Below, piece after piece: positions 24,157 to 51,262 of a stretch of DNA of 64,000 nt. How positions within the stretch are numbered: position 1 is the stretch's first letter; every line of letters begins with the position of its first letter. Location: positions 536 to 64,535 of the forward strand of contig CAZIAH010000002.1 in assembly GCA_964537715.1 (NCBI GenBank), read 5' to 3'. Made by a program: the position numbers and the translations under genes. Source of the stretch: an uncultured bacterium. GTDB lineage: Bacteria; Zhuqueibacterota; QNDG01; DSAB01. Below the pieces are notes generated by a model that had not been told where the DNA came from, did not search any database, and saw nothing but the letters and a program-made list of their open reading frames with translations.

Positions 24157-24485
24157 GTTTGGAGTTTGCAAATCAATTGTTGCCGACTCTGAATTGAAGA
24201 TTAGTCCATTCAGTCCTTAAAAGAGTTGGTCTTTTAATTCTTTAATACAGTATTTCCCAAAGAGAAAACGGATCATTGTTTGATAACATAAAAATATCTT
24301 TTCCCGTAATTGTTAATTAAATAGTTATGTAATCTATATGTAATCGTTATTTTCTAAGATGAATACGATGTGTAATAAGTAAATGCATAAATAAGGTTCA
24401 TTTCTTTTTTACTCCTGAGGTGCTTAATTATGAGAATATCGAGGTAACGACAATCATTTCGAATTGCAAAATGGAGGAATACAGA

Positions 24486-32887: not shown

Positions 32888-33239
32888 GAGAATGATGGTA
32901 TTGAATTGTATTTTGATGCACAGAATCAAAAAAATAGTGGATACTACGAAAATAAATATAAAAACTTTTACTCCAGATCAATTTGTTCTTCTTCAAAACT
33001 ATCCCAATCCGTTTAATCCAACCACAGAAATCTCATATTCTCTTGATAAAACTGCTAATGTCAAATTGATTGTTTTTGATGTAACCGGAAGGGAGATTCA
33101 AGCTCTCATTGATCAAGTTCAATTCCCCGGCGATCACAAGATCATCTTTGATGGATCTGGCCTGAGTAATGGTGTTTATTTTTATAAACTTGAGACGGAT
33201 CAAAATGTGATGGTGAAAAAGATGGTTTTGGTGAAGTAG
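32888..33239 (+). pseudogene. Remnant of a third CBM9-CTD paralogue
   Basis: The frame at 32888 reads ENDGIELYFDAQNQKNSGYY (CBM9 motif). It is out of frame with an intact CTD (track ORF 32892..33239) that closely resembles those at 17.1-17.4 and 18.7-19.0 kb. No signal peptide. Confidence 0.75.
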
Positions 33240-33426: not shown

Positions 33427-33462
33427 AAATATGCAATACATGAATTGATGTATTGCATATTT
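33427..33462. promoter_or_regulatory. Perfect 15-bp inverted repeat upstream of the EPS operon (operator or AT-rich terminator)
   Basis: AAATATGCAATACAT-gaattg-ATGTATTGCATATTT, followed by further Ts. Confidence 0.5.
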
Positions 33463-33570
33463 TTTTTATTTTTCTTATGGAAGATACATATTATAGCTTG
33501 TAAATTACCATAGTTTTATGGTATAATATTTGTAATAAAAAGTGTAATATTCATTTTAAAAGGATCATAA

Positions 33571-36500
33571 ATGAAAAATAAGTGCTATTCTATCTATACA
33601 TATGTCTTTCTTTATATATTAATCTTTTTTTATTTCCCGATTAATTTATTGTCATATTCAAAGAATCGGCCGGTAGTAAAGGCCATGCCAAACCATTCGA
33701 TGGCAGTACGTTTCGATCCGTCCTATTATTATGATCGTGGTCAGGAAGTGAGTGAACTTTGTGAAACACTGGCTCAAAAATGGTCAGAGGCCGGTATCAA
33801 TCTTCTCTATATCAAAGTTTACGATCCTGTTTATGGAGCTGTTTATCATACTAATTATTCTTTGAATATTCAAACGGATTACGGCCGTCTGGATTTATTA
33901 AGTGCCATGATAAAATCATGTCATGAAAGGCATATTGCTGTATTTGCCTGGATACCAGCATTTCTGCACAAACAGGTCTGGGAGGCCCATCCTGAGTGGC
34001 GGATCAAAGACAAACAAGGGAATGACTATCAGACAGAAATGGAGCCTTATTTACTTTGCACGCGTCATCAAGGATTTCGTCAATGGTGGCTTGGATTCAT
34101 TGATGAACTGGCTGAAAATTATCCTGGACTTGATGGATTTGATATTGCAGAGCCGATTGTAACGTGGAAATATGATGAAGGCTGTTTTTGTGATCTATGT
34201 CAGAAGGCGTATGAAAATTATCTGGCAAACGGAGGTAGCAAATCGACTTTATATCAGGTCCGATCTAAATCCCTCCTTGAGATATTGGAAGAAACAATTC
34301 ATCGGATTCACAAGCATAGGAGAAAGGCCTCCATTACGACGGTCGTTTCAGCGTACAAGAATGGATTGATTTATTCTTCCGAGGAGCAGCGAATGTTGTC
34401 CGGTTTCGATCTGGACGGCATTTTGAATTCTACTCAAAAACCCGATATGATCAATACAGAATTGATCTGGCAGCAGTGGGCGGATGTTTTTCACGATAAA
34501 AAAATATTTACTCCCCGGTGGACCCGGGAAGCCGTGCGTCAGGTTCTTTCTCAAGTGAACGGGCGGGCCGATTTAATTGTTCATGTGGAAATCACGAATT
34601 TTGGAGGGGTGATCGTCAACCAGGATCAGGTTCTCGAGAGTATCACATCCGCATTTCAAGGAGGCGCAAAAGGCATCGACATTTATGATTCGCATCAGGC
34701 AGATGAACAGAATTTGTGGCCTGAATTGACTCGTGTTTTTAAAGCGGTTCCTAAAAAACAAGTGGTTGTCTATTATGATCCAGTGGGTGAAAATGATGCC
34801 AGACAGCTTAAAGTTCTTCTCAATCATTTTAATACAGAGAGCAAACTCATTCCTTTGGAAAAGTCCTTTTCTCCTTATCATGATGCAGAGATGGATGTGA
34901 TTTTTTATGTGGGTGTAGCCAATCGTTCTTCTCTGCCATCAAGGTTTCTTCGTTATATATCCAGAACTCATCATACAGTCTGCTGGATCAACTATAATCT
35001 GTTCTATCTGGGGCAAAAATATTTATCGAAACTGGGGTTTCAATATCAGGGTCAGGATGAAAGATCCCAATATGAAGTACAGTACAAAGGGGCTTGTTTT
35101 ACCAAACTGGATTCATCGATAAACATCATTCGGGTTGATAATCCGGATCAATGCCATGTCCTGGCACAGGTCAGAAAAGATAGCATCGAAGTTCCTTATA
35201 TCATTCAGAGCGGTCATTTTTGGTATGTGGCAGATCTTCCTCTGTCTTATGTGACAGAAGGAGGGCGGCATATTGTCTTTGCGGATTTGCTTCATGATAT
35301 CCTGAATGAAAATCATCAGGAACGGCATCTGGCCCTGGTCAGAATTGAGGATGTCAATCCCCAATCTTCCCCGGAGAGCCTTCGGGGGATTGCAGATTTC
35401 CTCAGTTCAAAAAATATACCTTTCTCAGTAGGACTCACACCCTTTTATCTGGATCCGTCGACCAACACAGCTGTTTCGCTTTCTGATCGGCCTGAATTGA
35501 CCGAGGCGTTGAGATACATGGTTTCTAAAGGCGGAACAATCGTATTGCATGGATGCACACACCAGTACCGTGGTCAGTCTTGTATTGATTATGAATTTTG
35601 GGATGGTATTGAAGATCGGCCTCTTTTTGAAGACTCAGAAGAATATGTCCGAAATCGTTTGGATAAAGCTCTGGATGAATGTCTTCATAACGGTATCTAT
35701 CCCTTGATATGGGAAACGCCCCATTATGCAGCTTCATTGTTTGATTATCGAATCATTAGTCAGTATTTCAGCACTTCATATGAGAGAAGGCAGACCTCGG
35801 ATGTTCTTGGAAGCGATCAGCTTCTTCCCTTTATTACCCGTTCTCTGTTTACCAATACATTGATCATTCCGGAAAATCTTGGATATATTCCTGTCGAGAA
35901 TCCTTCTCCGGAAAATGTGATCACAGCTGCCGAGAAAAATTTGGCTGTGAGAGATGGGTTTGCCAGCTTTTTCTTTCATCCATTTCTGGACCTAGAGATA
36001 CTCAAGGAGGCAGTAAAGAGAATCGAGAAATTGGGATATACTTTTGCCAATGTTCGTTCATTTAACAGTTGTGTTGCCGGTTCTTCCTGTTTTATTGCCA
36101 GCGGACAAAATGAAATGAAACTAGATTTAAATAGTCAATACTTTGAAGAATTTTACTTAACACATAACGGTAAGATCGAAAACCGTTATACCAGTGAAGC
36201 GAAATTGACCGAGCCAATTCATAAAATAGTAACCTGTCCTGCTGGCTGGATGTATATCGGACAGGCTTTAAAGACCAAAGAGGCAACATTTGTTCCCAGT
36301 GAGTGGAATTCTTTTTTAAAAGCACCCTTCAAAATAGGGAATCTTTGGCGAGCCGATCCGCTGGTCGGTATCAAAACGCCTGTCGTTCCTTTATTTATTA
36401 TTGATCTGGATGCACAGGGTGATGAGGCTGTCAGTCAGGAAAGTCTTTTAAAGACTTTTGAATCGGTGGGAATTGACTTTCAAACCACATCAGTTAAGAA

Positions 36501-38598
36501 TTTTATCGAGATTCCTGAGTCCGTTAATCTCATTGTAATCCCCTATGCGGCGGGCAAGCATCTGACTGAACAGCAGAATCTCTTTATTATCCGTGAGCTG
36601 GCAAATGGGAACAACCTGATTTTGGAAAAAGAAACCGACCTGAGTACACGCATTGGTATCGTATCTGTGGGAGGTTATAAAAATGCGAGCACCGTACAGG
36701 ATGAATATTATCCGCAAGTAGATATTCACTGGAAAGAAAATGACCGTTATCGAAATTTCGATGTTCCGATCGAGTATGTAACCTATTATTCCGAAAGAAC
36801 AAATCGAGATCCACTGGTTATCGGGGGTGAATATGGAGAAGGCAAGTATCTCTATATTGCCACATTTTTTGATCCAACGACATCCAGAGGGTATGGCCGA
36901 TATCCATACTTTTGTGATCTCATACAGAGAGAATTTGATCTTTGGCCAGTGATGAAAAAGGAGTGTGCTGAAGTCTATTTTGAGCCGGGCGACCGGGAAG
37001 ATATCAGTATTGAAGATCTGGTCAAAATGTGGAAAGAGAGTGGATTCAGAATTATTTATGTGGCTGGCTGGCATGTCTATCAGCAATGGACCTACGATTA
37101 TGAAAGGCTTATCAAGTTGGCGCATGAGAATGCTATGCTGGTGTATCTCTGGCTGGAACTTCCTCATGTGAATCAAAAATTTTGGGACGAACACCCTCAA
37201 TGGCGAGAAATAACCGCCACCGGAGAAGAGGCTTTTGTTGATTGGCGTCGACTGATGGCATTAACGATTGATTCGTGTCGTGAAGCAGTGTATCAAGAAT
37301 TGTCCGGTCTGATCGATCGATATGATTGGGATGGCATCAATCTAGCGGAACTCTATTTTGAATCAGCCTATGATTGGCAGACATACAGTCCAGTAGGGCC
37401 TGAACGTCCTGAAAATTTTACACCCATGCATCCTTCCGTACGCGCAGATTTTCGGAAACGGTATCATTTTGATCCGGTGGATCTCTTCAATCAAAAGTCT
37501 GTGCACTATTGGCGCCAAAATATGAAAGACTGGAATGTTTTTGAGAAGTATCGAGAGCAATTGGTCGTAAAACTTCATCGGGAATTCCTGCAATTTCTGC
37601 ACAGGGAAAGTGATCAAAAAGATTTGGATATGGAAATATTGGTCACTGTGTTGGATGATATTCTTGGGAAGAATATCGGCAGGGGTACGGGAACAGATAC
37701 GAAAGGGATCATTGCACTTCAGAATCAATTCCCCTTTACTTTGCAGATAGAGGACCCAGCACAGTTATGGAATTTGAAGCCCGACCGATATAAGTTGCTT
37801 TCAGATACTTATGATCCCATGATGAATGACGGATCTTTGATTTTGGATATTAATATTGTACCCTTCCGTAACCTGAAGCGAAGCTTGTCGCCTACCCAAC
37901 AACAAACAGGTGTTGAACTCAATCAGTTAATGCGATATGCTTTTCAGGATAGCAACCGGGTTGCTTTGTACTCAGAATCCACTATCTATACGGTTGATCT
38001 CCCCTGGATTTCTTACGTTTTAGGGAGAAATGCAAAAGAAAATATTTCAGAGTTTGAGTGGCAAGTACAGACCAAGCAGACGGTTGTTGCCGATTTGGAT
38101 CCTGACAGCCACAAAAATATCTATTTGGACGATCATTTTTGGCCTGCATATTATAAAGGACACATCATTATTCCGACGGGTAATCATAGAATTCGTTCGT
38201 TGAATAAAGTCGATAATCTAAAAAGCACATTTGTTCCTTCAACTCGACTGATTGATATGAGCGGAGAGTTGCGCCGATGCAATTTGTTCTCACAGGGATT
38301 GGATATCTTATATGAATCCAAAATCAGGAATTATATCGTTATCAATGAAGAACCGATAAAAATTCTTTTGGACGGAAAACTGTTTCATCCTAAAATATTC
38401 AACGGGCTTGTAGGATTTACGCTGCAATTGCCGGCCGGATCGCATATGGCCAAAATTTATACAAAAAGCAAGGGTTCGTATTCATTAAGAAACATCAGTA
38501 TCATTACTTCTATGTCTATTGTTGCTATCAGTTTTATGGCCGGTTCTGTTCTTCTTGTGCTTTATGTGGCCAGGTTTAAAAGGAGAAAGAATACCTAA
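33571..38598 (+). CDS. Multidomain periplasmic polysaccharide-processing protein: GH-like barrel, DUF2334/YdaL-like deacetylase, second GH-like barrel, C-terminal TM
   Basis: Signal sequence; DLLSAMIKSCHERHIAVFAW...LDGFDIAEP; ALVRIEDVNP, IVLHGCTHQY, WETPHY, FFHPF; YERLIKLAHENAMLVYLW...WDGINLAE; hydrophobic helix plus RFKRRK tail. Confidence 0.75.
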   Translation: MKNKCYSIYTYVFLYILIFFYFPINLLSYSKNRPVVKAMPNHSMAVRFDPSYYYDRGQEVSELCETLAQKWSEAGINLLYIKVYDPVYGAVYHTNYSLNIQTDYGRLDLLSAMIKSCHERHIAVFAWIPAFLHKQVWEAHPEWRIKDKQGNDYQTEMEPYLLCTRHQGFRQWWLGFIDELAENYPGLDGFDIAEPIVTWKYDEGCFCDLCQKAYENYLANGGSKSTLYQVRSKSLLEILEETIHRIHKHRRKASITTVVSAYKNGLIYSSEEQRMLSGFDLDGILNSTQKPDMINTELIWQQWADVFHDKKIFTPRWTREAVRQVLSQVNGRADLIVHVEITNFGGVIVNQDQVLESITSAFQGGAKGIDIYDSHQADEQNLWPELTRVFKAVPKKQVVVYYDPVGENDARQLKVLLNHFNTESKLIPLEKSFSPYHDAEMDVIFYVGVANRSSLPSRFLRYISRTHHTVCWINYNLFYLGQKYLSKLGFQYQGQDERSQYEVQYKGACFTKLDSSINIIRVDNPDQCHVLAQVRKDSIEVPYIIQSGHFWYVADLPLSYVTEGGRHIVFADLLHDILNENHQERHLALVRIEDVNPQSSPESLRGIADFLSSKNIPFSVGLTPFYLDPSTNTAVSLSDRPELTEALRYMVSKGGTIVLHGCTHQYRGQSCIDYEFWDGIEDRPLFEDSEEYVRNRLDKALDECLHNGIYPLIWETPHYAASLFDYRIISQYFSTSYERRQTSDVLGSDQLLPFITRSLFTNTLIIPENLGYIPVENPSPENVITAAEKNLAVRDGFASFFFHPFLDLEILKEAVKRIEKLGYTFANVRSFNSCVAGSSCFIASGQNEMKLDLNSQYFEEFYLTHNGKIENRYTSEAKLTEPIHKIVTCPAGWMYIGQALKTKEATFVPSEWNSFLKAPFKIGNLWRADPLVGIKTPVVPLFIIDLDAQGDEAVSQESLLKTFESVGIDFQTTSVKNFIEIPESVNLIVIPYAAGKHLTEQQNLFIIRELANGNNLILEKETDLSTRIGIVSVGGYKNASTVQDEYYPQVDIHWKENDRYRNFDVPIEYVTYYSERTNRDPLVIGGEYGEGKYLYIATFFDPTTSRGYGRYPYFCDLIQREFDLWPVMKKECAEVYFEPGDREDISIEDLVKMWKESGFRIIYVAGWHVYQQWTYDYERLIKLAHENAMLVYLWLELPHVNQKFWDEHPQWREITATGEEAFVDWRRLMALTIDSCREAVYQELSGLIDRYDWDGINLAELYFESAYDWQTYSPVGPERPENFTPMHPSVRADFRKRYHFDPVDLFNQKSVHYWRQNMKDWNVFEKYREQLVVKLHREFLQFLHRESDQKDLDMEILVTVLDDILGKNIGRGTGTDTKGIIALQNQFPFTLQIEDPAQLWNLKPDRYKLLSDTYDPMMNDGSLILDINIVPFRNLKRSLSPTQQQTGVELNQLMRYAFQDSNRVALYSESTIYTVDLPWISYVLGRNAKENISEFEWQVQTKQTVVADLDPDSHKNIYLDDHFWPAYYKGHIIIPTGNHRIRSLNKVDNLKSTFVPSTRLIDMSGELRRCNLFSQGLDILYESKIRNYIVINEEPIKILLDGKLFHPKIFNGLVGFTLQLPAGSHMAKIYTKSKGSYSLRNISIITSMSIVAISFMAGSVLLVLYVARFKRRKNT

Positions 38599-38625
38599 AA
38601 CAAATGTAAATTGTGAGGAAAATAA

Positions 38626-39891
38626 TTGGGAGCTTTTCATTCTGTAATACTGGATGCGCTGTTTCTTTTTGCCGTTTCGGTGATTTGGATGATGATTCTT
38701 TATCAGCTCGTGATGAGTTTTTGGGGTTATCGGTACTATCGTTCGACAAGGATAAAGGAACCCGATAAACCGCATTCCCGGGAGGCACTGCCGAGCGTCA
38801 GTATTTTAATTCCGGCCAGAAATGAGGAAGTCGTTATTAAAACGACATTAAATCATATTTTATCGATGGATTATCCTGAGGATAAGATGGAAGTGATTCT
38901 TATTAATGATGGATCCACGGATAAGACGGCTATGGAAGTGGAATCGGTTTCAGCCCGATATCCACAGGTAAGGATGGTGCATCTGTCTGGTGTAAATGCC
39001 GGAAAGGGGAAAGCCCATGCTCTGAATTTTGGTCTTAAAAGTGCCCGAAACGACCTTATCGCAGTTTATGATGCCGATAATTGTCCGGAGCCATCCTCAC
39101 TAAGGATTTTGGTTATGGATTTGATTTCAAATGATCATATCGGAGCCGTTATCGGGAAGTTCCGTACACTGAATAAAAAGAAAAATTTACTGACCCGTTT
39201 TATCAATATTGAAACATTGAGTTTTCAGTGGATACTGCAGGCCGGTAGGTATCTCGGCTTTGGTATTACCATTCTTCCCGGCACCAATTTTGTGATCCGA
39301 AGAGAGGTTTTGGATGCGTGTAAAGGGTGGGATGAGGATGCGATCACGGAAGATTCGGAATTAAGCGTACGCGTTTACCAGAAAGGCTGGAAAATGAAAT
39401 TTGTTCCCGCAGCAGTAACATGGGAACAGGAGCCGGAAAAATGGTCGGTCTGGGTCAGACAACGTACACGATGGGTTCGGGGAAACAATTATGTGATAAA
39501 GAAATTTCTTAAACAAGCATTAAGGCTGAAGAACCGGTTTTTAATGCTGGAATTTCTCCATCTTTTTATACTGTACTATCTTTTTTTAGGGGCTATTATT
39601 GTATCCCATCTTTTTTTCTTGCTTTGCGGTCTGGGCATTCTTTCAGTTACTGTACCCGGTCCGTATACGGCGGTCTGGATTTCTGCATTTCTGCTCTACC
39701 TTTTGGAAATCATTTTGGTGTTATCTTTTGAGAATGAAGATTCTCTGATCAATATTTTCTGTATTGCCTTGATGTATTTTACCTACTGTCAGATGTGGAT
39801 ATACGTGGTTTTCAAAGCATTTTATATGGATTTTATGAAAAAACGGGTGGGAGTCTGGGATAAGACCGAAAGGGTACTCCATGTCAATTAG
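38626..39891 (+). CDS. Processive GT2 polysaccharide synthase, B. subtilis YdaM-like
   Basis: VSILIPARNEE, INDGSTD, GKGKAHALN, VYDADN, LLTRFINIETLSFQW, PGTNFVIRR, ITEDSEL, TWEQEPE, RQRTRW, W.KTER tail. Confidence 0.9.
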   Translation: MGAFHSVILDALFLFAVSVIWMMILYQLVMSFWGYRYYRSTRIKEPDKPHSREALPSVSILIPARNEEVVIKTTLNHILSMDYPEDKMEVILINDGSTDKTAMEVESVSARYPQVRMVHLSGVNAGKGKAHALNFGLKSARNDLIAVYDADNCPEPSSLRILVMDLISNDHIGAVIGKFRTLNKKKNLLTRFINIETLSFQWILQAGRYLGFGITILPGTNFVIRREVLDACKGWDEDAITEDSELSVRVYQKGWKMKFVPAAVTWEQEPEKWSVWVRQRTRWVRGNNYVIKKFLKQALRLKNRFLMLEFLHLFILYYLFLGAIIVSHLFFLLCGLGILSVTVPGPYTAVWISAFLLYLLEIILVLSFENEDSLINIFCIALMYFTYCQMWIYVVFKAFYMDFMKKRVGVWDKTERVLHVN

Positions 39892-39912
39892 TGTCAGTGG
39901 ATTGTTCAATAG

Positions 39913-40785
39913 ATGAGAAAAAGAACTGAAATCATTTGTGCAACAGTTATTTTGTGTTGTTTTGCCAGGACGCCAATTTTCACCCAGGAAACAGCGCCTC
40001 CAGATTCCTTGATGAAAGGAAAAAACCAGAAAAAAATGCATATCAAACTCTGGGGGGAATTGTACAACGAATCGATTTCATTTTACAAATTGAACAATAA
40101 TTTTATTTCATGTTCGCATATCAGGCAGGGAATAAAAATGTACCGGGAGTCCAAAATATGTCTTGAAACGTACTTTCTGTTTCGCTACGGGAAAGATCTT
40201 AATCATGATTTCTGGAATAATAAAATAGAGACCGGACTCGGATTTCGGTTAAGGTGGTTTCAGAGTATATTTTTAGCGGTTTATCTGGAATGGATAAAGG
40301 GATATTACCTGGATATGCTGGAGGAATATGCACTATATAGTTCTGAGAATTATCATGATTTTCGTACGGGTTTGATATTCTGGTACGGCTGGGACCGAAA
40401 AATCATAGAATATCCACCGGAGAATTTCCCTTTTAATTATTGGGGTGAACTGTACAGTGATGTAAGTTATTATCGGTCACAGCGAAACAATGTGATTGGA
40501 TATTTCAGTGCTAAGATCGGATTGAGGCCGTTGAAATTATGGCAGGCAACTCTCGATTGTTACGGAACTGCCTATCTGTATAAAGATGTGAATAAGGATT
40601 TCTGGAATAATAAAATAGAGTACGGACCTGGATTTTGGATCCGGCCGTATTATGATTTGAGTTTGAAACTGTATATCGAGTGGCTCTGGGGCAACTATTT
40701 CGGTGTAGAAGGTTTGGATCCGAATCCCTACGATCAGAATTACTGGGACAGAAGAATGGGAATTATATTATGGATCGGATGGTAA
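39913..40785 (+). CDS. Putative outer-membrane beta-barrel built from two homologous halves
   Basis: Signal peptide; aromatic amphipathic strands; repeated WGELY...DFWNNKIE.G.G...YLEW...G(L/I)..W.GW; terminal Trp. Confidence 0.65.
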   Translation: MRKRTEIICATVILCCFARTPIFTQETAPPDSLMKGKNQKKMHIKLWGELYNESISFYKLNNNFISCSHIRQGIKMYRESKICLETYFLFRYGKDLNHDFWNNKIETGLGFRLRWFQSIFLAVYLEWIKGYYLDMLEEYALYSSENYHDFRTGLIFWYGWDRKIIEYPPENFPFNYWGELYSDVSYYRSQRNNVIGYFSAKIGLRPLKLWQATLDCYGTAYLYKDVNKDFWNNKIEYGPGFWIRPYYDLSLKLYIEWLWGNYFGVEGLDPNPYDQNYWDRRMGIILWIGW

Positions 40786-40798
40786 CTAGGAGGAAAAT

Positions 40799-42361
40799 GT
40801 GAAATTACATTCATACATCTCTGCAATAGGTGTATTCACATTTGTATTTTCTATAAGCAGCATACTGATGGGGCAGAATGGAGGGGAATTAATATGGCAG
40901 TCTTCGACTGACTGGATTGTCAATTCGATTGCTCCGACCAACGATGCAAACGGGGATGGAATTTCGGATGTTTTTGTCGGTTCGGCAGATTATCGGGCTT
41001 ACTGTTTTTCGGGTGATGGAAGTGGTATTGTCTGGTCCTGGAATTTTGGGGCCGAAGTGAAAACAGTCGCCAGTATTCCAGATATCAATGGAGATGGTGT
41101 GGATGACTGTCTTGCAGGAGGACTGGCCAATACCGTTTATTGTATGTCCGGGAAACCGGATCACAAGGGATTGACAGAAATCCTTTGGTCTCAACCAGTG
41201 GATTGGCATGTTTGGTCACTGGCCACGATCGGGGATATTGATGGTGACGGAATTCGTGAATGTCTGTCAGGTGCCGGGGATAATATGGTTTGCTGTTTTG
41301 ATGGTGCCTATGGAGATTTGTTGTGGTCTTATATGGATACTGCAGACATATTGACTGTTCATGCTATTTCTGACGTCAACAAGGACGGGTACGAAGATTG
41401 TCTGGCCGGTGGACACGGGAACAGAGTGCTCTGTATTTCAGGTGCAAGTGAAGGGAACGGAGAACTCCTCTGGCATTATATGATTTTCCCGCCTGAAGGG
41501 ACTTCTGTGTTATCTGTTGCACCCATTGCAGATGTGAATGGGGATGGGGTTGCAGACTGTCTGGCGAGCGGATTGCACGAGCTCGTCTACTGTATTTCGG
41601 GGGCAAGCAGCGGACAGGCAGATCTCATCTGGAGTTATCCGACCGGAGCAAATGTGCTCTCTGTGGCGTCGATCTCGGATGTGAATGGGGATGGGTTTTC
41701 CGATTGCCTGGCCGGTGGAGAGAGTGACAAGGTGTTTTGTATCTCAGGCCATACAGGCACATTAATTTGGTCATTTCCCACTGCGGGAACCGTATACGAC
41801 GTGAATCACATTTCAGATGTCAATGGAGATGGTTTTGAAGATTGTATTGCCGGTGGAGCAGGCAATATGGTACATTGTATCAATGGGAAATCGGGGAGCC
41901 GATTGTGGGAATACGAAAACGAGGATGGAGGAACGGTTCGATGTGTGGCTGCTATCCCGGATCTCAATAGCAATGGTATTCACGATGTTGTCGCAGGAAC
42001 TGATGGCAGTTTGGTCTATGCCATAGAAGGAGGAACCAGTACAACTGAGGTACTGTCTGGTACTCCTGTATCTGATAAACCGGTTCAGTATCAACTTTTG
42101 CAGAATTATCCGAATCCTTTTAATCAAACGACCATGATTTCTGTTCTTTTACCTGAAAAAAGCGAGATCAGATTGGATGTTTTTAACTTGAATGGAGAAT
42201 TGGTATCCACACCGATTGTGGGTCCTTTTCCTGCGGGGAAACATCAAATTCGTTGGAACGGAGAGGGCCTGAACGGAGGGTCGTTATCGTCTGGATGTTA
42301 TCTGTATCGATTAAAGACCGATGCTTTTTCTTCTGTAAAGAGGATGACACTGATCAAATAG
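40799..42361 (+). CDS. Secreted FG-GAP/PQQ-like beta-propeller protein with CTD
   Basis: RBS AGGAGG, GTG start; 8 repeats D(V/I)NGDG..DCLAG...VYC.SG...W; QNYPNPFNQTT CTD. Confidence 0.85.
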   Translation: MKLHSYISAIGVFTFVFSISSILMGQNGGELIWQSSTDWIVNSIAPTNDANGDGISDVFVGSADYRAYCFSGDGSGIVWSWNFGAEVKTVASIPDINGDGVDDCLAGGLANTVYCMSGKPDHKGLTEILWSQPVDWHVWSLATIGDIDGDGIRECLSGAGDNMVCCFDGAYGDLLWSYMDTADILTVHAISDVNKDGYEDCLAGGHGNRVLCISGASEGNGELLWHYMIFPPEGTSVLSVAPIADVNGDGVADCLASGLHELVYCISGASSGQADLIWSYPTGANVLSVASISDVNGDGFSDCLAGGESDKVFCISGHTGTLIWSFPTAGTVYDVNHISDVNGDGFEDCIAGGAGNMVHCINGKSGSRLWEYENEDGGTVRCVAAIPDLNSNGIHDVVAGTDGSLVYAIEGGTSTTEVLSGTPVSDKPVQYQLLQNYPNPFNQTTMISVLLPEKSEIRLDVFNLNGELVSTPIVGPFPAGKHQIRWNGEGLNGGSLSSGCYLYRLKTDAFSSVKRMTLIK

Positions 42362-42378
42362 GTTTTTAAGGAAATGCA

Positions 42379-45234
42379 ATGATTGACCGGTTGAAATTGT
42401 TTGTGTTTTGGCTTCGACAAGTTCGATTTATCTCAATAGTATGCCTTTCCATTCTCCTTGTAGAATTGATTTATGCACAGGAGCCTGGGGATCTGATCTG
42501 GAAATCTACCACAGGCTGGAAAGTTCGTGATGTATCGTCAGCTGGCGATGTGAACAATGACGGCATTGCCGATGTTTTTGTCGCTTCTGGCAGTGATATG
42601 GTGATTTGTTTTTCAGGCGGCGGAATCAATAAAGGAGAGATTTTGTGGACCTGGCCAATTCCAAATGATGTTTGGTCGGTTACAAACATATCCGATGTCA
42701 ATCATGACGGTGTTGAAGATTGTCTTGCAGGTGGAGGCGATAACCATGTTTATTGTTTATCCGGGAAACCAGAAAACGGATCGACTCATGAAATTTGGAA
42801 ACAGCCGGTTTTTGGAGATGTTTGGATAGTAGCCCGGATTGGTGATCTCGATAACGATGGTATCAATGATTGCCTTGCGGGTTCTGGTGATGATCACGTA
42901 TACTGTTTCAGTGGATCCAGTGGTCTTCTGTTGTGGTCCTATACCGATGCTGCGGATATATTAACTGTTCATGCCATTCCAGATGTCAATGGCGATGGGA
43001 AAGAGGATTGTTTGGCCGGAGGGCATGGGAATCGGGTTTTATGTATATCAGGCGGAAGTTCTGTCACAGGAGAGTTGCTCTGGCACTATACCCTCTATGC
43101 GCCGGTCGGCGCTTCTGTTCTGTCTGTGTCTCCGATTGAAGATATGAACGGAGATGGCATTACAGATTGTCTGGCAGGCGGATTGAATGAGGCGGTTTAT
43201 TGTATCTCCGGCGGAAGCAGTGATCAGGCAAATTTGATATGGATTTATCCAACCGAAGCGAATGTGCTCTCCGTTGCCTCGATATCAGATGTGAATGGAG
43301 ACGGATTTTCGGACGGCCTGGCTGGTGGATTGGACGATAAAGTATTTTGTATTTCTGGGCATTCAGGTGAATTGGTCTGGTCATATCCCACAAATGAAAC
43401 CGTGTTTGATGTGGCCGTAATTCCGGATGTCAATTATGACGGTATCAACGATTGTATCGCGGGTGGTGGTGATAATCAAATACATTGTATTGACGGTAAA
43501 CTGGGGGATAAACTGTGGTCCTCCTCGACTGTGGGATCTGTTTTAAAGGTCACAGCCGTTGCTGATTTAAATGGGAATAGTATAAACGATGTCATCGGCG
43601 GATCGGATGACAGCTATGTTTATGTGTTTGAAGGCGGTGAATTCATTATTGAAACTGTGGATGTACCTACAGTACCAGCGGGGCCTGATGCCGGGAAAGT
43701 AGGCGCCAATTTGGCATTCACCACAGAGAATGCAACCAGCAATTTAGGGCATTCCCTTGAATACCATTTTGATTGGGGAGACGGTACTTTCTCTGATTGG
43801 GGAGACGTTTCTCAGAGCCATTTATATAATAATGTTGGCAGTTATTCCATTAAAGTTCAGGCCCGCTGTCAGATCCATAAAAGTGTTATTTCAAACTGGT
43901 CTGCCGGCCACGATATTTCAATTTCCGGTCATCAATTAAATATTTCATTTGTGGGTTCCGGGAATGTGACCAAAAATCCAGATAAAGATGCATACAATCA
44001 CAATGAGAGTGTGGTTCTGAATCCTGTTCCATCCGCTGATTATCAATTTGACCATTGGGAAGGCGATTTAACAGGAAGTACTTTTCCTGAGACATTGGTC
44101 ATGAACGGAGACAAATCGGTCATTGTCCATTTTACACAGACTTCTGAAATCATATCTACGCCCAACGAACCCGAAGGAGTTTCACAAGGGAATGTCGGGG
44201 AAGTGTTGGCGTTTATCACGGGAGGGGCAAAAAGCAATCTGGATCATCCAGTGGCATATCGCTTTGATTGGGGAGATGGGTCTTATTCTGAGTGGGGAGA
44301 TTCGGTTCAAACAAACAGCTGGGCTCAAATCGGTTTGTACACCGTTAAGGCTCAGGCTCGCTGTAAAGACCATCCGAGTGTTATTTCAAATTGGTCTGCC
44401 GGCCACGATATTTCAATTTCTGGTCATCAATTAAATATTTCAATTGTGGGATACGGGAGCGTGACCAAGAATCCAGATAAGGATGCATACAATCACAATG
44501 AGAATGTGGCACTGAATCCTGTTCCATCCGCTGATTATCAATTTGACCATTGGGAAGGCGATTTGTCCGGAAATGGTTGTCCTGATACATTGATTATGAA
44601 TGGGAATAAATCGGTTACCGTTTATTTTTTACAAATTCCTGAAGTTGTTTCAGCACCCGATATTCTCCAGGGCACTTCCACAGGGAATGTTGGAGAAATG
44701 TTAACATTTATCACAGGAGGGGCGAAAAGCAGCCTCAATCATTCTGTTGACTATCGGTTTGATTGGGGAGATGGGTCGTTTTCTGATTGGGGGGACTCAG
44801 TTCAAGCGAACAGCTGGGATCAAATCGGTACATACATCGTTAAAGCACAGGCGCACTGTTCGGATCATACTTCTGTGGAGAGTGACTGGTCTTTTGGTAT
44901 GACAGTCCAGGTCAGTACAACAGGGGTTGAATCTATCGGGACCGATCAGATCCCGACAAGATTTTATCTTTCTCAGAACTATCCGAATCCGTTCAATAAT
45001 GCGACATCCGTTGAATTTCATATACCCCGTATTTGTCGTCTGCAAATTCAACTGTTTAATATCTATGGAGAAGAAATTAGGGTATTGGTTGAAGGGTATT
45101 ATTCACCAGGAATTTATCGGGTTATCTGGGATGGTAAAAATACGTCTGGGGTGACTGTCTCTTCAGGAATATATACGTATCGTTTAATCACCGATCAATT
45201 GATTACTTCTAGAACATTGCTTCTTCTCAGGTAA
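42379..45234 (+). CDS. Paralogous propeller protein with 3 PKD-like and 2 InlB-B-repeat-like domains and CTD
   Basis: 8 propeller repeats; Y.FDWGDG.FS.W x3; G.G.VTKNPDKDAYNHNE.V.L...P.ADYQFDHWEGDL x2, near-identical at DNA level (~43880-44075 vs ~44378-44570); QNYPNPFNNAT. Confidence 0.85.
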   Translation: MIDRLKLFVFWLRQVRFISIVCLSILLVELIYAQEPGDLIWKSTTGWKVRDVSSAGDVNNDGIADVFVASGSDMVICFSGGGINKGEILWTWPIPNDVWSVTNISDVNHDGVEDCLAGGGDNHVYCLSGKPENGSTHEIWKQPVFGDVWIVARIGDLDNDGINDCLAGSGDDHVYCFSGSSGLLLWSYTDAADILTVHAIPDVNGDGKEDCLAGGHGNRVLCISGGSSVTGELLWHYTLYAPVGASVLSVSPIEDMNGDGITDCLAGGLNEAVYCISGGSSDQANLIWIYPTEANVLSVASISDVNGDGFSDGLAGGLDDKVFCISGHSGELVWSYPTNETVFDVAVIPDVNYDGINDCIAGGGDNQIHCIDGKLGDKLWSSSTVGSVLKVTAVADLNGNSINDVIGGSDDSYVYVFEGGEFIIETVDVPTVPAGPDAGKVGANLAFTTENATSNLGHSLEYHFDWGDGTFSDWGDVSQSHLYNNVGSYSIKVQARCQIHKSVISNWSAGHDISISGHQLNISFVGSGNVTKNPDKDAYNHNESVVLNPVPSADYQFDHWEGDLTGSTFPETLVMNGDKSVIVHFTQTSEIISTPNEPEGVSQGNVGEVLAFITGGAKSNLDHPVAYRFDWGDGSYSEWGDSVQTNSWAQIGLYTVKAQARCKDHPSVISNWSAGHDISISGHQLNISIVGYGSVTKNPDKDAYNHNENVALNPVPSADYQFDHWEGDLSGNGCPDTLIMNGNKSVTVYFLQIPEVVSAPDILQGTSTGNVGEMLTFITGGAKSSLNHSVDYRFDWGDGSFSDWGDSVQANSWDQIGTYIVKAQAHCSDHTSVESDWSFGMTVQVSTTGVESIGTDQIPTRFYLSQNYPNPFNNATSVEFHIPRICRLQIQLFNIYGEEIRVLVEGYYSPGIYRVIWDGKNTSGVTVSSGIYTYRLITDQLITSRTLLLLR

Positions 45235-45265: not shown

Positions 45266-47182
45266 TTATTTTTTCAAGGTATCATGGACTTTTTGTAGTA
45301 AATCAGCCAGATTGAATGGTTTCTGCAGTAATTCAAAATTTTCTTTTTGAATATCGGACCATTTTGAGCTGTATTCCGGATAGCCACTGGTTAACAAAAT
45401 GCGAAGCCCCGGTTCGATGGCCAACAGCTTTTTTGCGAGCTCGACACCACTTCCGTCCGGCAGTACAACATCACTGAAAACCAGTTGAATGTTTCCTTTC
45501 TCTTTTTTGTATACATCCATTGCCTTTTTTAAACTGGACACAACAGATGTACGATAGCCACATCTTTCCAATGCTGTTTTCATATATTGCCGTACCTTGG
45601 TTTCGTCTTCAACCAGCAGAATGTGTTTTCCGTTGCCCTGTAACGATCTGACTGATAATTTTTTCTCTGGTTTAGTCTCTACTTTGTCTTCTATTGTTGG
45701 CAAATAGATTTTAATTGCTGTTCCGTGACCGGGTTCACTGATGGCTTCAATCCACCCAGTATGCTCTTTTACGATGCCATATACGACGGATAATCCGAGG
45801 CCTGTTCCTTTTCTGTCCTTTTTTGTTGTGAAGAAGGGATCAAAAATATGTTCAATTTTATTTGCATCCATGCCCGTCCCGTTATCGACTATGGAAAGAC
45901 AGACAAAACTGCCCGGGTATGATTCAGATTTACCCTTTGTTTGAGTTTCATGGAAATGGACTTCTTCTGTTTTAATGGTCAGGTTGCCGCCTTCGGGCAT
46001 GGCCTCTTTGGCATTAATCGCAAGATTTACAATAATCTGTTCCAGAGTTCCTTCATTGGCTTTAATATTTGAAATGTTATGTTTCAAGGATGTGTTGATT
46101 TGAATAGATTCTCCGATGATGCGATGCAGCATTGTCATTAAATTGTTAACGATACGATTGATATTAACAGGTTTAAAGGACATGGGCTGCATACGGCTGA
46201 ACAGAAGCAGTTTGCTGGTTAGTTCCGCTGCCCGCTGTGCTGATTCCTGAATTTCCGTAATATACTCATAGAGCGGATTGTCTTTTTTACAGCTTAAAAG
46301 AGCCAGATCAGTAGAACCCTGAATGGCCGTTAATAAATTATTAAAATCATGTGCTATGCCTCCGGCCAGCGTTCCTATCGCTTCCATTTTTTGTGCGTGC
46401 CGGAGTTGTTCTTCCAGATTCTTTTTTTCTCCGACGTCTCTGAATACCAGTACAACACCTTTCAGCTTTTTCTTTGAATCGAGAATTGGAGCTGCACTGT
46501 CCTCAATGGATACTCTTCTTCCATCTTTTGTGATCAGGATTGTATTATTCTGTAAATGTATGATGCTGTTATTTTTTAAAACTTGTGATACCGGATCTTC
46601 TAACTTGTTCTTATTTTTTTTATTAAAAATATTTAAGACTGTTTTAATGTCTTTACCCAGAACTTCTTTTTCCTGCCAGCCGGTTAAAGAGATTGCCTGT
46701 TGATTCATAAAGGTTACACGTCCCTTTGTATCGGTTGTTATGACTGCATCGCCGATACATTTCAGAGTTGTAGAAAACCATCGTTCACTCTCTTTTATTT
46801 TTTTTTCCATATCATTTTTGTAAAATGCTATCTCAAGAGTTGAACGGAGTTCCCTCTCCTCGATTGGTTTCAATATATAGCCGAACGGCTCGGTTAATTT
46901 TGCCCGCTGTATTGTATTATCATCTGAATAAGCAGAGAGATAGACGACCGGAATGTCAAATTGATTGTGAATGATCTTAGCAGCCTCAAATCCTTCCATG
47001 TTTTTACCTAGCATGATGTCCATCAGAACAAGATCGGGTGGCTCTTTTTTTACAGCGTCAATAGCCTGTTCTTTGGAGGAAACAGTATCTGTTACGGTAT
47101 AATTTAAAGACTCTAGTCTCACTTTAATCTCTGCTGCAATGATAAGTTCATCTTCAACAACAAGTATTTTTCGTTTTGCCAT
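45266..47182 (-). CDS. Hybrid histidine kinase REC-PAS-HisKA-HATPase-REC
   Basis: KILVVEDE...LVLMDIML; PAS IGDAVITTDTKGRVTFMN; AGGIAHDFNNLL; NLAINAKEAM, DNGTGM, FFTTK...GTGLGL; C-terminal ILLVEDE...FSDVVLP. Confidence 0.93.
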   Translation of the reverse strand: MAKRKILVVEDELIIAAEIKVRLESLNYTVTDTVSSKEQAIDAVKKEPPDLVLMDIMLGKNMEGFEAAKIIHNQFDIPVVYLSAYSDDNTIQRAKLTEPFGYILKPIEERELRSTLEIAFYKNDMEKKIKESERWFSTTLKCIGDAVITTDTKGRVTFMNQQAISLTGWQEKEVLGKDIKTVLNIFNKKNKNKLEDPVSQVLKNNSIIHLQNNTILITKDGRRVSIEDSAAPILDSKKKLKGVVLVFRDVGEKKNLEEQLRHAQKMEAIGTLAGGIAHDFNNLLTAIQGSTDLALLSCKKDNPLYEYITEIQESAQRAAELTSKLLLFSRMQPMSFKPVNINRIVNNLMTMLHRIIGESIQINTSLKHNISNIKANEGTLEQIIVNLAINAKEAMPEGGNLTIKTEEVHFHETQTKGKSESYPGSFVCLSIVDNGTGMDANKIEHIFDPFFTTKKDRKGTGLGLSVVYGIVKEHTGWIEAISEPGHGTAIKIYLPTIEDKVETKPEKKLSVRSLQGNGKHILLVEDETKVRQYMKTALERCGYRTSVVSSLKKAMDVYKKEKGNIQLVFSDVVLPDGSGVELAKKLLAIEPGLRILLTSGYPEYSSKWSDIQKENFELLQKPFNLADLLQKVHDTLKK

Positions 47183-47209: not shown

Positions 47210-48631
47210 TTAAGTTTCAAATGTAATTTTATATTCTGTCCCCTCATCTCTGAGGAGATCTATGGTACCGTTCAATTGTTCGGTTAGCATGCCTACAAGT
47301 CTTAATCCCAATGTTTTTGCATTTTGTAATTTTACATTTTTGGGTAACCCTATACCATTATCTGCAACAGCAAGCCTCACTTTATTATGATTGATTGAAT
47401 CCATATTAATTTCTATATGACCTTTACGCTCATCTGAAAATGCGTATTTTAATGAGTTTGAAACAAGTTCGTTAATAATTAAACCGCACGGAATAGCTTT
47501 ATCAATACTGAGAGAAACATTTTCGACATGAACTCCGATATTGATTTTTTCGGCATTTATTTTATAAGATTCAGAAAGATAAGAAGTTAAATTTTTGATA
47601 TATTCTGAGAAGTCGATGTTCATAAAATCTTTTGAGCGATACAATTTCTCATGTATCAGTGCCATCGATTTAACGCGGTTCTGACTTTCATTAAACATTT
47701 CAAATGTTTCTTTGTCTCTGATTTTCCGGGACTGTAAATACAGAAGGCTGGAAATTACCTGCAGATTGTTTTTAACACGATGATGAATTTCTTTCAACAG
47801 AATGTCTTTTTCTTTAAGAGAGGCTTTGATCATTTTTCCCGCCCGTTTCCGTTCGGATAATTCTTTCTGAAGCTGCTGGGCCCGTTCTTCCAAATCAGTC
47901 TGTGCCTGTTTTAAGGCTATGTTCTGTTCATGGATTTGTCCCAGCATTTCGTTAAATCTTTCTGTGAGAAATCCCAGTTCATCCTCACTTGTTTTTTCCG
48001 CGCGTATCGTGTAATCTTTTTTTTGGGAAACCTTTTTTGCAACGTTTGCCAGGTGCAGAATGGGTTCGGATACAAAGCGCTGGAGTCTTGCAGTCAGAAT
48101 AAAACTGGCAAGAATAGAAATAAAAAGTACAAGCGTGATGATAAAAGCAAACCGTTTCAAGCGGGTGCGGATTTCACCCAGATTGGATTGAATGTAAACC
48201 TTGCCGATTCTTTCATTATCCAGGAAAATTTGCCGGAACAGAACAAGATGATTTTTCTTGAAATAACATCCATCTTCATTCGGTATCGGTGGCAGTGACT
48301 GTGTGTCCGAATCTGAGAGTTTATATTTTGCAAATAATTTGTCATCCTGATCGTAAATGGCGGCAAAGAGGATATTTTTTTCTGCTTTTAATAGGATGGC
48401 AAGTGTTTCCTGCGCATCATCCTCGTTGTCGAAAATCAGTGCGGCTGTGCTGTGATTGCCAATAATTTCTGCCAGTGTATTCAGCTTTTGCTTCATAACC
48501 TCTTTATAGGACACCTGGTCATAAAAAATAAATACTGTGCAGGCCAGCAACAATGCAGTACTGCTGATGATCATGGCAATAAATGTCAATTTTTGTTTGA
48601 TGAAAAGTTTATGAAACAAGCGTCTTCTCAT
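47210..48631 (-). CDS. Membrane sensor kinase: YfiN-type periplasmic domain, HAMP, HisKA_2/HATPase
   Basis: TM - [25 protein letters not shown]...AAIYD - TM - HAMP ([14 protein letters not shown]) - [17 protein letters not shown]...[12 protein letters not shown]...DNGIG. Confidence 0.9.
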
Positions 48632-49905: not shown

Positions 49906-50035
49906 TATAACTCGTACAGAAAGTTTTTAAGGAGAGTGCCTATAGAAGTTCGTTAAAGGTCTGGTGGATTTTAGTTATACTGTTTCTGCAGAAAAAAAAG
50001 TTGTATTCCGCTTGCCTTTACGGACTTATATCCAG

Positions 50036-50090
50036 ACCGAATGTTCATGGTCCGTGTGTTTTTCTGCAGGACATGAGAATTCGGTTTTTT
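50036..50090 (+). terminator. Terminator-like hairpin within the porV 5' leader
   Basis: CCGAATGTTCATGGTCC (50037-50053) pairs with GGACATGAGAATTCGG (50069-50084); T6 follows, 21 nt before the start codon. Confidence 0.6.
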
Positions 50091-50111
50091 ATTTATATTT
50101 TGGAGGATAAA

Positions 50112-51170
50112 ATGAAGAAATTATTCATGATTCTGATGATCACAGCCCTTGGATTGATGTTTTCGTCCTCGGCATTTGCTGTGAGTGAATCGGCGGTACT
50201 CTTTCTGCTGATTTCTCCCGGAGCCAGAGCCGCGGGAATGGGTGAGGCTTTCGTGGCAGTGGCGGATGATGCCACGGCGATACACTGGAATCCTGCAGGG
50301 CTTGCATTCCAGAGAGGCGGAGAGGTCACTCTTATGCACTGTAAATGGCTGCCCGGACTGGTCGACGATATGTACTATGAATTCGGATCGTTTCGTCAGT
50401 ATTTCGAAAGTCTTGGAGGAACCGTCGGTGCCAACGTCACCTACCTCAATATGGGCGAACAGGTCTGGATGAGTGAAAATAACGAAGAGCAGGGACGTTT
50501 TGTCAGTTACGATTTCGCTGTGACTCTGGGATATGCTACCCAGCTAAATGATAATCTGGGTCTTGGTGTGAATATGCGGTTTATCCAGAGTCTGCTGGCT
50601 CCAGACTGGGTTCAGGTGGGTGAGGAAAAGGGGGGTGGAAAAGGAAATGCCTTTGCCGTGGATGTAGGGATGCTGTACAAATTTTCTTTTCCCAAAGGAC
50701 TCTCATTCGGTGCCGCCATTTCCAATATGGGGCCGAAAATTACCTATGTGGATCAGGCGCAGGCAGATCCCATTCCGACTAATCTGAAAGTCGGATTTGC
50801 GTACCGGTTGCTGGACACAGAATACAATCGCTTTTTATTAGCTGTGGATACGAACAAACTGTTGGTGGTACGGCATAAAGACGGCACGTCAGATCCTTTT
50901 TACAAGGCACTTTTTACTTCCTGGACGGATGGATCTTTGAGTGACCAGGCGAAGCGGCTGATCAGTTCTGTGGGTTGTGAATATGTTTATAATAATATGA
51001 TTTTTCTGCGGGCCGGTTATTATTATGATGAAGAAGGAAAAGTGAAATTTCCCGCTTTCGGCGCAGGGCTGCAGTATTCAAAGTATCGTTTCGATTTTGC
51101 CTATGTGGCGGCAGAACAGGGACATCCGCTTGCAGATACCATGCGGTTTTCTTTGACTATCGGTTTTTAA
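50112..51170 (+). CDS. porV: PorV family outer-membrane protein (T9SS shuttle)
   Basis: RBS GGAGG before ATG 50112 (track start 50001); AVSESAVLFLLISPGARAAGMGEAFVAVADDATAIHWNPAGL; C-terminal RFSLTIGF. Confidence 0.88.
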   Translation: MKKLFMILMITALGLMFSSSAFAVSESAVLFLLISPGARAAGMGEAFVAVADDATAIHWNPAGLAFQRGGEVTLMHCKWLPGLVDDMYYEFGSFRQYFESLGGTVGANVTYLNMGEQVWMSENNEEQGRFVSYDFAVTLGYATQLNDNLGLGVNMRFIQSLLAPDWVQVGEEKGGGKGNAFAVDVGMLYKFSFPKGLSFGAAISNMGPKITYVDQAQADPIPTNLKVGFAYRLLDTEYNRFLLAVDTNKLLVVRHKDGTSDPFYKALFTSWTDGSLSDQAKRLISSVGCEYVYNNMIFLRAGYYYDEEGKVKFPAFGAGLQYSKYRFDFAYVAAEQGHPLADTMRFSLTIGF

Positions 51171-51213
51171 ATGTGGCGGATTTTGTAGACTGATGTTGTA
51201 ACTTGTTTTGAAG

Positions 51214-51248: not shown

Positions 51249-51262
51249 TCTGTGGAGTCTTC

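Follow-up and report, generated by a model that had tools for sequence, protein, structure and literature searches.

A conserved gene cassette of an uncultured diderm bacterium predicted to direct synthase-dependent exopolysaccharide production

Synthase-dependent exopolysaccharide (EPS) systems, including those for cellulose, poly-N-acetylglucosamine (PNAG), alginate, Pel and the Nfr glycan, are central to biofilm biology, and to our knowledge all of the well-studied examples in diderm bacteria come from Proteobacteria. In this study, we analyzed a 64,000-nt stretch of DNA from an uncultured bacterium of the Zhuqueibacterota (assembly GCA_964537715.1, contig CAZIAH010000002.1; hereafter the window), which contains five consecutive genes, here named A to E, at positions 33571-45234. 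Our comparative analyses make it likely that this cassette encodes a diderm synthase-dependent EPS pathway for an N-acetylmannosamine (ManNAc)-type, probably partly deacetylated polymer. In full-text literature searches (DUF2334, COG5298, GHL6 and ydaJKLMN), no description of a comparable diderm system was found.

The systems closest to the cassette are found in monoderm as well as diderm bacteria. In Listeria monocytogenes, the pss operon, which includes pssC, directs the synthesis of the polymer Pss, -4)-beta-ManNAc-(1-4)-[alpha-Gal-(1-6)]-beta-ManNAc-(1- (PMC13492145), that is, a beta-1,4-ManNAc chain that carries galactose (Gal) in alpha-1,6 linkage (PMC13492145, PMC5422440), and the yda-dependent EPS of Bacillus subtilis spores binds an alpha-Gal/N-acetylgalactosamine lectin (PMC13274460). 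Among diderm bacteria, the N4 glycan receptor system of E. coli, comprising NfrB, NfrA and YbcH together with WecB, is synthase-dependent, and UDP-ManNAc is its proposed donor (PMC8669472, PMC8669469). The Pseudomonas PelA protein of the Pel system and the PgaABCD system provide the remaining points of comparison.

The five genes all lie on the + strand and are separated by gaps of 27 (A-B), 21 (B-C), 13 (C-D) and 17 nt (D-E), an arrangement that points to one operon-like cassette. Gene A (33571..38598) encodes a 1675-aa multi-domain protein predicted to modify polysaccharide in the periplasm, gene B (38626..39891) a 421-aa predicted inner-membrane processive synthase of the PssC type belonging to glycosyltransferase family 2 (GT2), and gene C (39913..40785) a 290-aa predicted outer-membrane beta-barrel with a signal peptide and 12 strands. 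These are followed by gene D (40799..42361), for a 520-aa secreted FG-GAP beta-propeller with a type A sorting domain of the type IX secretion system (T9SS), and gene E (42379..45234), for a paralogue of D that has 951 aa and additional PKD and InlB-B-like repeats. The initial annotation had placed a three-gene unit at 33571-40785, and its three open reading frames (ORFs) were recovered on the + strand at exactly these positions; the unit itself proved larger, as it continues into 40799-45234.

Protein B matches the Pfam family Glyco_tranf_2_3 with 126 bits (cut-off 27) and Chitin_synth_2 weakly. It carries the complete D/DxD/TED/QxxRW motif set (D95 in NDGSTD, DAD149-151, TED241-243 and QRTRW279-283), and its hydropathy segments (aa 1-34, 305-347, 346-370 and 374-396) flank the catalytic domain. 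These features characterize B as a probable processive, membrane-embedded GT2 synthase with a predicted transmembrane (TM) channel, in agreement with the initial annotation, which had recognized a GT2 synthase here. The NCBIfam scores of B stayed below the cut-offs: the best model, PgaC_IcaA, scored 168 bits (cut-off 422; E 2.9e-49), followed by CelA with 110 bits (cut-off 699) and NodC with 81 bits (cut-off 550). As the Pss/Yda-type comparison sequence we used Listeria PssC, from the pssA-E operon located by a tblastn search of a plasmid collection that contains misfiled chromosomes; in a Bacillus chromosome of the same collection a cdgA-type GT2 was present and the yda operon was not found. 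B is 43% identical to PssC at full length (417 aa, E 7e-122), with both TM regions included in the alignment, compared with 39% for a B. thuringiensis GT2 adjoining a GGDEF gene, 29% for E. coli PgaC and 24% over 303 aa for E. coli NfrB.

The kinship with the Pss/Yda systems extends to the gene neighborhood, as the gene of the Listeria DUF2334 protein lies directly beside the synthase gene, just as it does in the cassette. The differences are nevertheless considerable. The Pss and Yda systems belong to monoderm bacteria and are without an outer-membrane component, whereas the cassette is from a diderm. They also need a BcsB-like protein (PssD/YdaN) and a cyclic di-GMP (c-di-GMP) receptor with a degenerate GGDEF domain (PssE/YdaK), neither of which was found in the cassette: tblastn searches with PssD and PssE gave no match in the window or in any related locus, and Pfam scans of the cassette and its neighbors detected no GGDEF, PilZ or MshEN domain. 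In the same Pfam scans and PssD searches, neither a tetratricopeptide repeat (TPR) protein nor a BcsB-like protein was found in the cassette. Listeria PssB is 25% identical to A over 156 aa only, while in the cassette the DUF2334 domain is embedded in a 1675-aa protein with two glycoside hydrolase (GH)-like barrels; A showed no similarity to Listeria PssD or PssA. The 'YdaL/YdaM-like' label of the initial annotation thus stands for the synthase and the DUF2334 domain, and does not extend to the BcsB-like protein or the receptor for c-di-GMP. With two of five parts in common, the cassette is, as judged from these comparisons, better regarded as a new variant of synthase-dependent EPS secretion than as a member of the Pss/Yda type.

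Protein A is the most complex component. Its 69 homologues are nearly all 1615-1768 aa in length and are annotated in their sources as 'DUF2334 domain-containing' or 'YdaL'; those with a name stem from KSB1, Zixibacteria or unclassified metagenome-assembled genomes (MAGs). The protein has a single hydrophobic N-terminal segment (signal or anchor, aa 6-30) and, at the C terminus, a single TM helix (aa 1642-1669) with a basic tail behind it; the helix and tail are present in all 67 aligned full-length homologues (1615-1768 aa), and 13 of these 67 have a lipobox-like N-terminus. Since the C-terminal helix is followed by a basic tail, the positive-inside rule implies that the bulk of A should be periplasmic.

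Six regions of A, all encoded on the + strand, were defined from conservation profiles and alignments. The first, D1 (aa 36-400, 33676..34770), is a GHL6/GH42-like TIM barrel according to Pfam (GHL6, aa 66-190, 43.8 bits against a cut-off of 35) and profile matches. Its profile matched the GH151 fucosidase 6tvk in the Protein Data Bank (PDB) with an E-value of 1.8e-4, over a span that includes a cluster of four cysteines with its CxCxxC site (C163...C205xC207xxC210), and more weakly the C-terminal domain of PgaB (E 0.018) and Cwp19 (E 0.026). Two glutamates of D1, E194 in 'AEP' and E340 in 'HxE', do not vary even in members with an overall A identity of only 35%, a pattern that we take to resemble the acid/base and nucleophile residues of clan GH-A. 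For D5 (aa 1118-1475, 36922..37995) another GH-like TIM barrel is predicted, paralogous to D1 (hhalign 97.9%, E 5e-13); it has no Cys cluster and, in the window protein, no significant Pfam match of its own. GHL10 was matched directly by three of 12 family members, and precomputed GHL10/DUF4015 matches exist for many A homologues. Two regions are without a family assignment: D4 (aa 826-1122, 36046..36936), the C-terminal half of which has weak GATase1-like or GH42 trimerization-domain similarity in a minority of members (E 0.0007-0.013), and D6 (aa 1470-1640, 37978..38490), a conserved region directly before the membrane anchor with a repeated 'PxGxH' motif.

Between the two barrels lie D2, a class-I glutamine-amidotransferase-like alpha/beta domain recognized by structure model matches (approximately aa 400-585, 34768..35325), and D3, the DUF2334 domain (aa 588-817, 35332..36021; Pfam E 1.3e-52). 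An AlphaFold model of aa 377-830 was of high quality (predicted local distance difference test, pLDDT, 94.7; predicted TM-score, pTM, 0.90), and its best match in the PDB was PelA (9cgy, E 9e-11, TM-score 0.52 over 486 columns), followed by the N-deacetylase part of human NDST1, Agd3 and many deacetylases of carbohydrate esterase (CE) family 4. The N-terminal half of the model matches class-I glutamine amidotransferase folds (GMP synthetase, HisH, PhzE and ThuA-like), which suggests that D2 is the equivalent of the PelA middle domain. D2 and D3 together (aa 377-827) align along their whole length with a standalone Ralstonia DUF2334 protein of 578 aa (31% identity, E 4e-68), with D2 covering the N-terminal half of that protein, so that the pair can be proposed as the 'YdaL-like' unit. 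In sequence searches of the PDB, whole A showed no similarity to any chain, PelA included, the DUF2334 profile gave no match, and D1, D4 and D5 gave weak matches only. A separate protein search with the DUF2334 profile yielded nothing but metagenomic and short sequences.

The conserved motifs of D3 are R591-I-E593-D594, H660-G-x-T-H664 and F-F-F-H803, together with W-E-T-P-H718-Y, P-E768-N-L-G-Y and R-D795-G; among 12 family members, which go down to 35% overall identity, the motif residues do not vary at all, and across 64 DUF2334 homologues they vary hardly or not at all. In PelA, which has the same domain pair, the catalytic base and the metal-binding Asp are in MT1, two His in MT2 and the acid His in MT5, and the D3 residues mirror these at equivalent positions and are conserved in A (PMC12022489). 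The conservation of D3, like that of the two D1 glutamates, is the pattern expected of active sites under selection, and the model predicts a deacetylase fold of the CE4/CE18/CE21 type with an Asp-His-His metal triad, a base and an acid. The claim of the initial annotation that a DUF2334-type deacetylase sits between two GH-like barrels of a membrane-anchored 1675-aa protein is well supported by Pfam, hhalign and the TM helices, and the fused hydrolase/deacetylase that it envisaged is supported by the PelA match of aa 377-830 and the invariant CE4-type motifs.

The resemblance to PelA concerns the overall plan as well. In both proteins a TIM-barrel hydrolase, a GATase1/PhzE-like domain, a metal-dependent deacetylase and a beta-rich region follow each other in this order, and both would be periplasmic modifiers, A by prediction, of an N-acetylhexosamine polymer made by a synthase. 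Because of the domain order and the model match, the first approximately 900 residues of A appear to repeat the plan of PelA with a different hydrolase family: PelA combines GH166, the middle domain, CE21 and a beta-rich region, while the hydrolase barrel of A is GHL6/GH42-like with a Cys cluster and belongs neither to GH166 nor to GH153, the family of PgaB. Moreover, A adds a second barrel, extra domains and the C-terminal membrane anchor, and the predicted exporter of the cassette is without TPRs. The partner synthase of PelA, PelF, is a GT4 enzyme, whereas that of the cassette is a GT2 enzyme.

For protein C, the predicted structure (pLDDT 84.4) consists of a signal helix (aa 2-18) and 12 beta strands. 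All 49 PDB matches of the model at E <= 0.001 were outer-membrane barrels, including 12-strand autotransporter domains, NanC, PcoB, OmpG and CymA, which bears out the initial annotation of the third protein as a barrel. The sequence has an internal 6+6 repeat, with RYGKDxxxDFWNN...DxRxGLxFWxGW occurring twice, and a conserved aromatic C terminus (...WIGW). Only 29 close homologues were found, and there was no match to Pfam or NCBIfam at E <= 0.1, PorP/SprF included, and no PDB sequence match. A profile search of 1.84 billion representative proteins yielded 416 relatives, many of which are 750-1400 aa in length with the C-like region at the extreme C terminus; nine of the 10 that were scanned are rich in TPRs. 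In each of the three TPR-barrel loci examined, the TPR-barrel gene is located between a divergent UDP-N-acetylglucosamine (UDP-GlcNAc) 2-epimerase gene and a gene for a GT2 of 612-615 aa with 35-36% identity to E. coli NfrB across approximately 600 residues, and no D/E-like propeller is present. BLASTP aligned C with one of these TPR-barrel proteins (that of locus L030) at an E-value of 2.5e-22. Because C-like barrels thus end TPR proteins that are encoded beside NfrB homologues, C is probably related to the outer-membrane partner of Nfr-like systems, from which it differs in having no TPRs. One further match of the C profile, the 605-aa protein P0225, joins a partial GT2 (aa 1-211) to a C-like barrel segment (aa 355-470), and is either a genuine fusion of synthase and barrel or an artefact of gene calling that spans B and C.

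The cassette partly resembles Nfr-like systems, in the kinship of its barrel with those of TPR proteins that have NfrB homologues as gene neighbors and in the epimerase gene linked to it in 11 relatives but not in the window; it differs in that B has only 421 aa, is 24% identical to NfrB and is without the MshEN c-di-GMP domain, and in that C is without a TPR region. The barrels of A showed no detectable similarity to E. coli YbcH, which in the Nfr operon (L028, 3092-3982) is a full-length DUF4434 protein (E 1.5e-69). On the Ralstonia solanacearum megaplasmid, a cluster at 2464-10796 of locus L026 has the order nfrB, nfrA, UDP-GlcNAc 2-epimerase, hypothetical, DUF2334, hypothetical; its DUF2334 protein is the one that aligns with aa 377-827 of A. 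With DUF2334 and GT2 matches on approximately 130 records of Ralstonia megaplasmids, this locus seems to be common among them, and it offers an accessible cultured model for DUF2334 function. With PgaABCD, the cassette shares the logic of a GT2 synthase, a bifunctional periplasmic deacetylase/hydrolase and an outer-membrane beta-barrel porin, but it has no PgaD, and PgaB is a lipoprotein with CE4 and GH153 domains. PgaA combines TPR repeats with a 16-strand barrel. The cassette combines parts that, in the known systems, belong to different machines.

These genes are conserved together. When the C profile was used to scan one genome of each species, 19 loci were obtained, in all of which D/E-like propeller genes follow C, and B and A precede C wherever the contig extends. 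Two further loci found through a distant A (35% identity), L020 and L021, have the order A, GT2, X, propeller, and X (372 and 402 aa) is homologous to C (hhalign E 9e-12 and 7.5e-21), so that a propeller gene follows C in 21 of the 21 loci where this could be checked. The joint conservation of the three genes assumed in the initial annotation is thus borne out by the order A-B-C in 19 of 19 loci found with C, as far as the contigs reach, and in L020 and L021. In the C homologues of the latter two (L020, 16230-17348; L021, 16181-17389), an insertion of approximately 80-110 residues separates the halves of the barrel repeat. In one contig the genes are arranged as A, a 506-aa protein, propeller, GT2. 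In addition, P0098, a 977-aa D1-D3 relative of A, adjoins an NfrB-like synthase gene, with no barrel in that context. A UDP-GlcNAc 2-epimerase gene was found immediately behind the propeller genes in 11 loci (L002, L005, L007, L008, L009, L012, L017, L018, L019, L020 and L021). The product, which had been left open in the initial annotation, is less open now because the epimerase belongs to the cassette in most relatives, and a ManNAc-type polymer appears likely.

Protein D has a signal peptide, eight DxNxDGxxD FG-GAP motifs and a sorting domain matched by both PF18962 (29.3 bits, cut-off 27) and TIGR04183 (29.9 bits, cut-off 23), and a PDB sequence search found no solved relative. E is 57% identical to D over the propeller; its sorting domain scored 21.7 bits with TIGR04183, just under the cut-off of 23, and its tail is 33% identical to that of D. 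In the propellers of distant loci, the last approximately 90 residues look like a sorting domain by eye and are not detected by Pfam. A PorV homologue (PF19572, E 1.2e-30) is encoded at 50001-51170 (+), and after it, in the region 50001-54382 (+), a 1039-aa FG-GAP propeller protein with a T9SS tail; as this protein has the same build, the combination of propeller and C-terminal sorting domain (CTD) is not unique to the cassette in this genome. A role of D and E in the pathway is argued from the constant linkage of the propeller, and our guesses are that, at the surface, they bind, tether or cleave the polymer.

From these comparisons, the following pathway is proposed; gene order with its conservation, domain identities, motif conservation, predicted folds and homologies are observed, whereas the enzymatic activities, the sugar, the topology, the pore function and the part played by D and E are inferred from them. 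In the inner membrane, B would polymerize a UDP-activated N-acetylhexosamine and thread the chain into the periplasm. The donor is most likely UDP-ManNAc, giving a beta-1,4-ManNAc backbone like that of the Listeria Pss polymer, because B is closest to PssC, because the epimerase belongs to the cassette in most relatives, because DUF2334 proteins and C-type barrels recur in NfrB/epimerase clusters, and because UDP-ManNAc is the proposed precursor of the NfrB-dependent glycan of E. coli (PMC8669472). A, held in the inner membrane by its C-terminal helix with approximately 1600 residues in the periplasm, would work on the nascent chain in the manner of PelA and PgaB: D3 would act as a metal-dependent de-N-acetylase (E593 as base, D594, H660 and H664 as metal ligands, and H803 as acid), the GH42-like barrel D1 (E194/E340) would cleave or trim the chain, and the second barrel D5 and the beta-rich regions would probably bind or guide the polymer. 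C would be the outer-membrane porin through which the polymer passes, and D and E, exported by the type IX system and displayed on the surface, may bind, tether or process it. This genome would have to carry its epimerase gene outside the window; without such a gene, a GlcNAc-based polymer would result.

Several observations weigh against this pathway and are best considered together with the other explanations that they invite. No epimerase gene lies within the 64-kb window, and none follows D in L003, L013 and L015, for which reason the assignment of ManNAc is indirect. The same machinery might make a GlcNAc-based, PNAG-like or chitin-like polymer, with B using UDP-GlcNAc and the DUF2334 domain deacetylating it in part, as in PgaBC; besides the epimerase not found in the window, the rank of PgaC_IcaA as the best NCBIfam model for B, the weak Chitin_synth_2 match and the weak match of the D1 profile to the PgaB C-terminal domain would agree with this. 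We nevertheless consider it rather unlikely, as the PgaC_IcaA score is far under its cut-off, B is 43% identical to PssC against 29% to PgaC, 11 relatives have the epimerase in the cassette, and C-type barrels and DUF2334 proteins co-occur with NfrB/epimerase clusters. A different kind of doubt concerns catalysis by A. Full-text literature searches on DUF2334/COG5298 found no description of its function and no characterized member, Listeria PssB is without the ED and HxxxH residues at the positions aligned to A, and the CE4 pseudoenzyme BA3943 is among the structural matches of aa 377-830. In D5, E1260, the equivalent of E194 in D1, is replaced by Gly in the most distant members; because of this loss its catalytic status is doubtful, and the second barrel may be non-catalytic. 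If the DUF2334 domain, the GH-like barrels or both were non-catalytic, A could be mainly a periplasmic scaffold or a conduit that binds carbohydrate, in place of the TPR and BcsB-like parts, which were not found in the cassette. This would be hard to reconcile with the invariance of all CE4-type residues of D3 and of the two D1 glutamates down to 35% identity, and we give it only a small chance.

The export step is open to similar objections. The TM-scores of C to known barrels are only 0.3-0.4, hhalign detected no similarity of C to E. coli NfrA, E. coli PgaA or Ralstonia NfrA, and the barrels of PgaA, BcsC, PelB and AlgE have 16-18 strands, so that the 12 strands of C would form a narrower, rather small channel for a polysaccharide. 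As the genes of T9SS-tailed propellers always lie directly after C, this protein might be a T9SS-cargo partner of D and E (a PorP/SprF-like anchor) or an unrelated porin, the polymer exiting elsewhere or staying in the periplasm. We regard this as improbable, since the relatives of C end TPR proteins whose genes, in three of three cases, adjoin those of NfrB homologues and epimerases without a D/E-like propeller, and C has no PorP/SprF match. The constancy of the cassette has an exception in the closed genome CP070762.1 (L034, 15027-20660), where A is followed by a B homologue that is approximately 25 residues shorter at the C terminus; no C or D was found within 10 kb, and genes for a 1214-aa TcA_TcB_BD (Tc-toxin-like) protein and tail-collar proteins follow in their place. 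Finally, GH-like and CE-like domains could equally degrade polymers, and neighboring genes encode CBM9 and other secreted T9SS proteins, so the cassette might be catabolic, with A, at the surface or in the periplasm, acting as a depolymerase/deacetylase that scavenges amino-sugar polymers from the environment, and C as a porin for uptake. This appears very improbable, because A or P0098 adjoins a processive GT2 synthase gene in the loci surveyed, an epimerase making the activated donor is often linked, and the cassette contains no transporter, kinase or deaminase genes for amino-sugar catabolism.

If the synthase-dependent pathway proposed here is correct, this class of EPS system would extend to uncultured lineages of the FCB group (KSB1, Zixibacteria and similar MAGs), and DUF2334/YdaL would acquire a concrete role open to testing, that of a PelA-like de-N-acetylase. 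One family of ManNAc polymers made with interchangeable parts would then unite the Pss/Yda polymers of Gram-positive bacteria with the N4-receptor glycan of enterobacteria, and an unexpected tie between EPS export and type IX secretion would emerge; the compact set of four to five genes could also serve for heterologous production of a ManNAc-type polymer. More tentatively, the cassette may represent a previously unrecognized fifth or sixth class of diderm synthase-dependent EPS secretion, in which the membrane-tethered A, an enzyme of 1600 residues whose N terminus is lipoprotein-like in some members, spans the periplasm in place of a TPR scaffold, the pore is reduced to a minimal 12-strand barrel and the polymer is handed to T9SS-delivered propellers. 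Should this less probable scenario hold, it would be the first functional coupling of an EPS synthase with the T9SS, widespread in uncultured phyla of the FCB group.

Downstream of the cassette, and convergent to it, gene F (45266..47182, - strand) starts 31 nt after the end of E and encodes a hybrid receiver-PAS-histidine kinase-receiver protein, followed by gene G (47210..48631, - strand) for a CHASE8-HAMP-HisKA_2 sensor kinase. Both are syntenic in four closer relatives (L007, L009, L012 and L018), and F is a possible regulator of the cassette. Upstream, a terminator-like 15-bp perfect inverted repeat followed by a T run (33427..33462, +), found by a consensus scan only, sets the cassette apart from the preceding genes, and a promoter-like site, TTGTAA-18-TG-TATAAT (33498..33527, +), known from its consensus match only, precedes the start of A by 44 nt. 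The promoter and terminator scans gave site numbers in the region not above the shuffled expectation, so these sites are only suggestive.

The window as a whole, containing lepA, a signal peptidase gene, the PorV homologue, cytochrome c assembly genes and many T9SS-CTD proteins, is chromosomal DNA from a diderm that has a type IX secretion system. A 2704-aa ORF shortly upstream of the cassette (24420-32534, +) resembles a giant surface protein, with six GEVED and five SdrD_B domains, DUF7507, a weak GH99-like stretch, fn3 and a T9SS sorting domain; its G + C content is approximately 0.50, compared with approximately 0.42 for the cassette. Between this ORF and the cassette lies a 115-aa ORF (32892-33239, +) consisting of almost nothing but a T9SS sorting domain (PF18962, E 6.9e-11), which may be the remnant of a lost cargo gene. 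Two CBM9-domain proteins of 314 and 532 aa, both with T9SS sorting domains, are encoded side by side at 16418-18977 (+). The segment from 8000 to 14000, which includes a radical-SAM gene and an S9 peptidase gene, has a low G + C content of 0.32-0.38, compared with 0.42-0.53 elsewhere.

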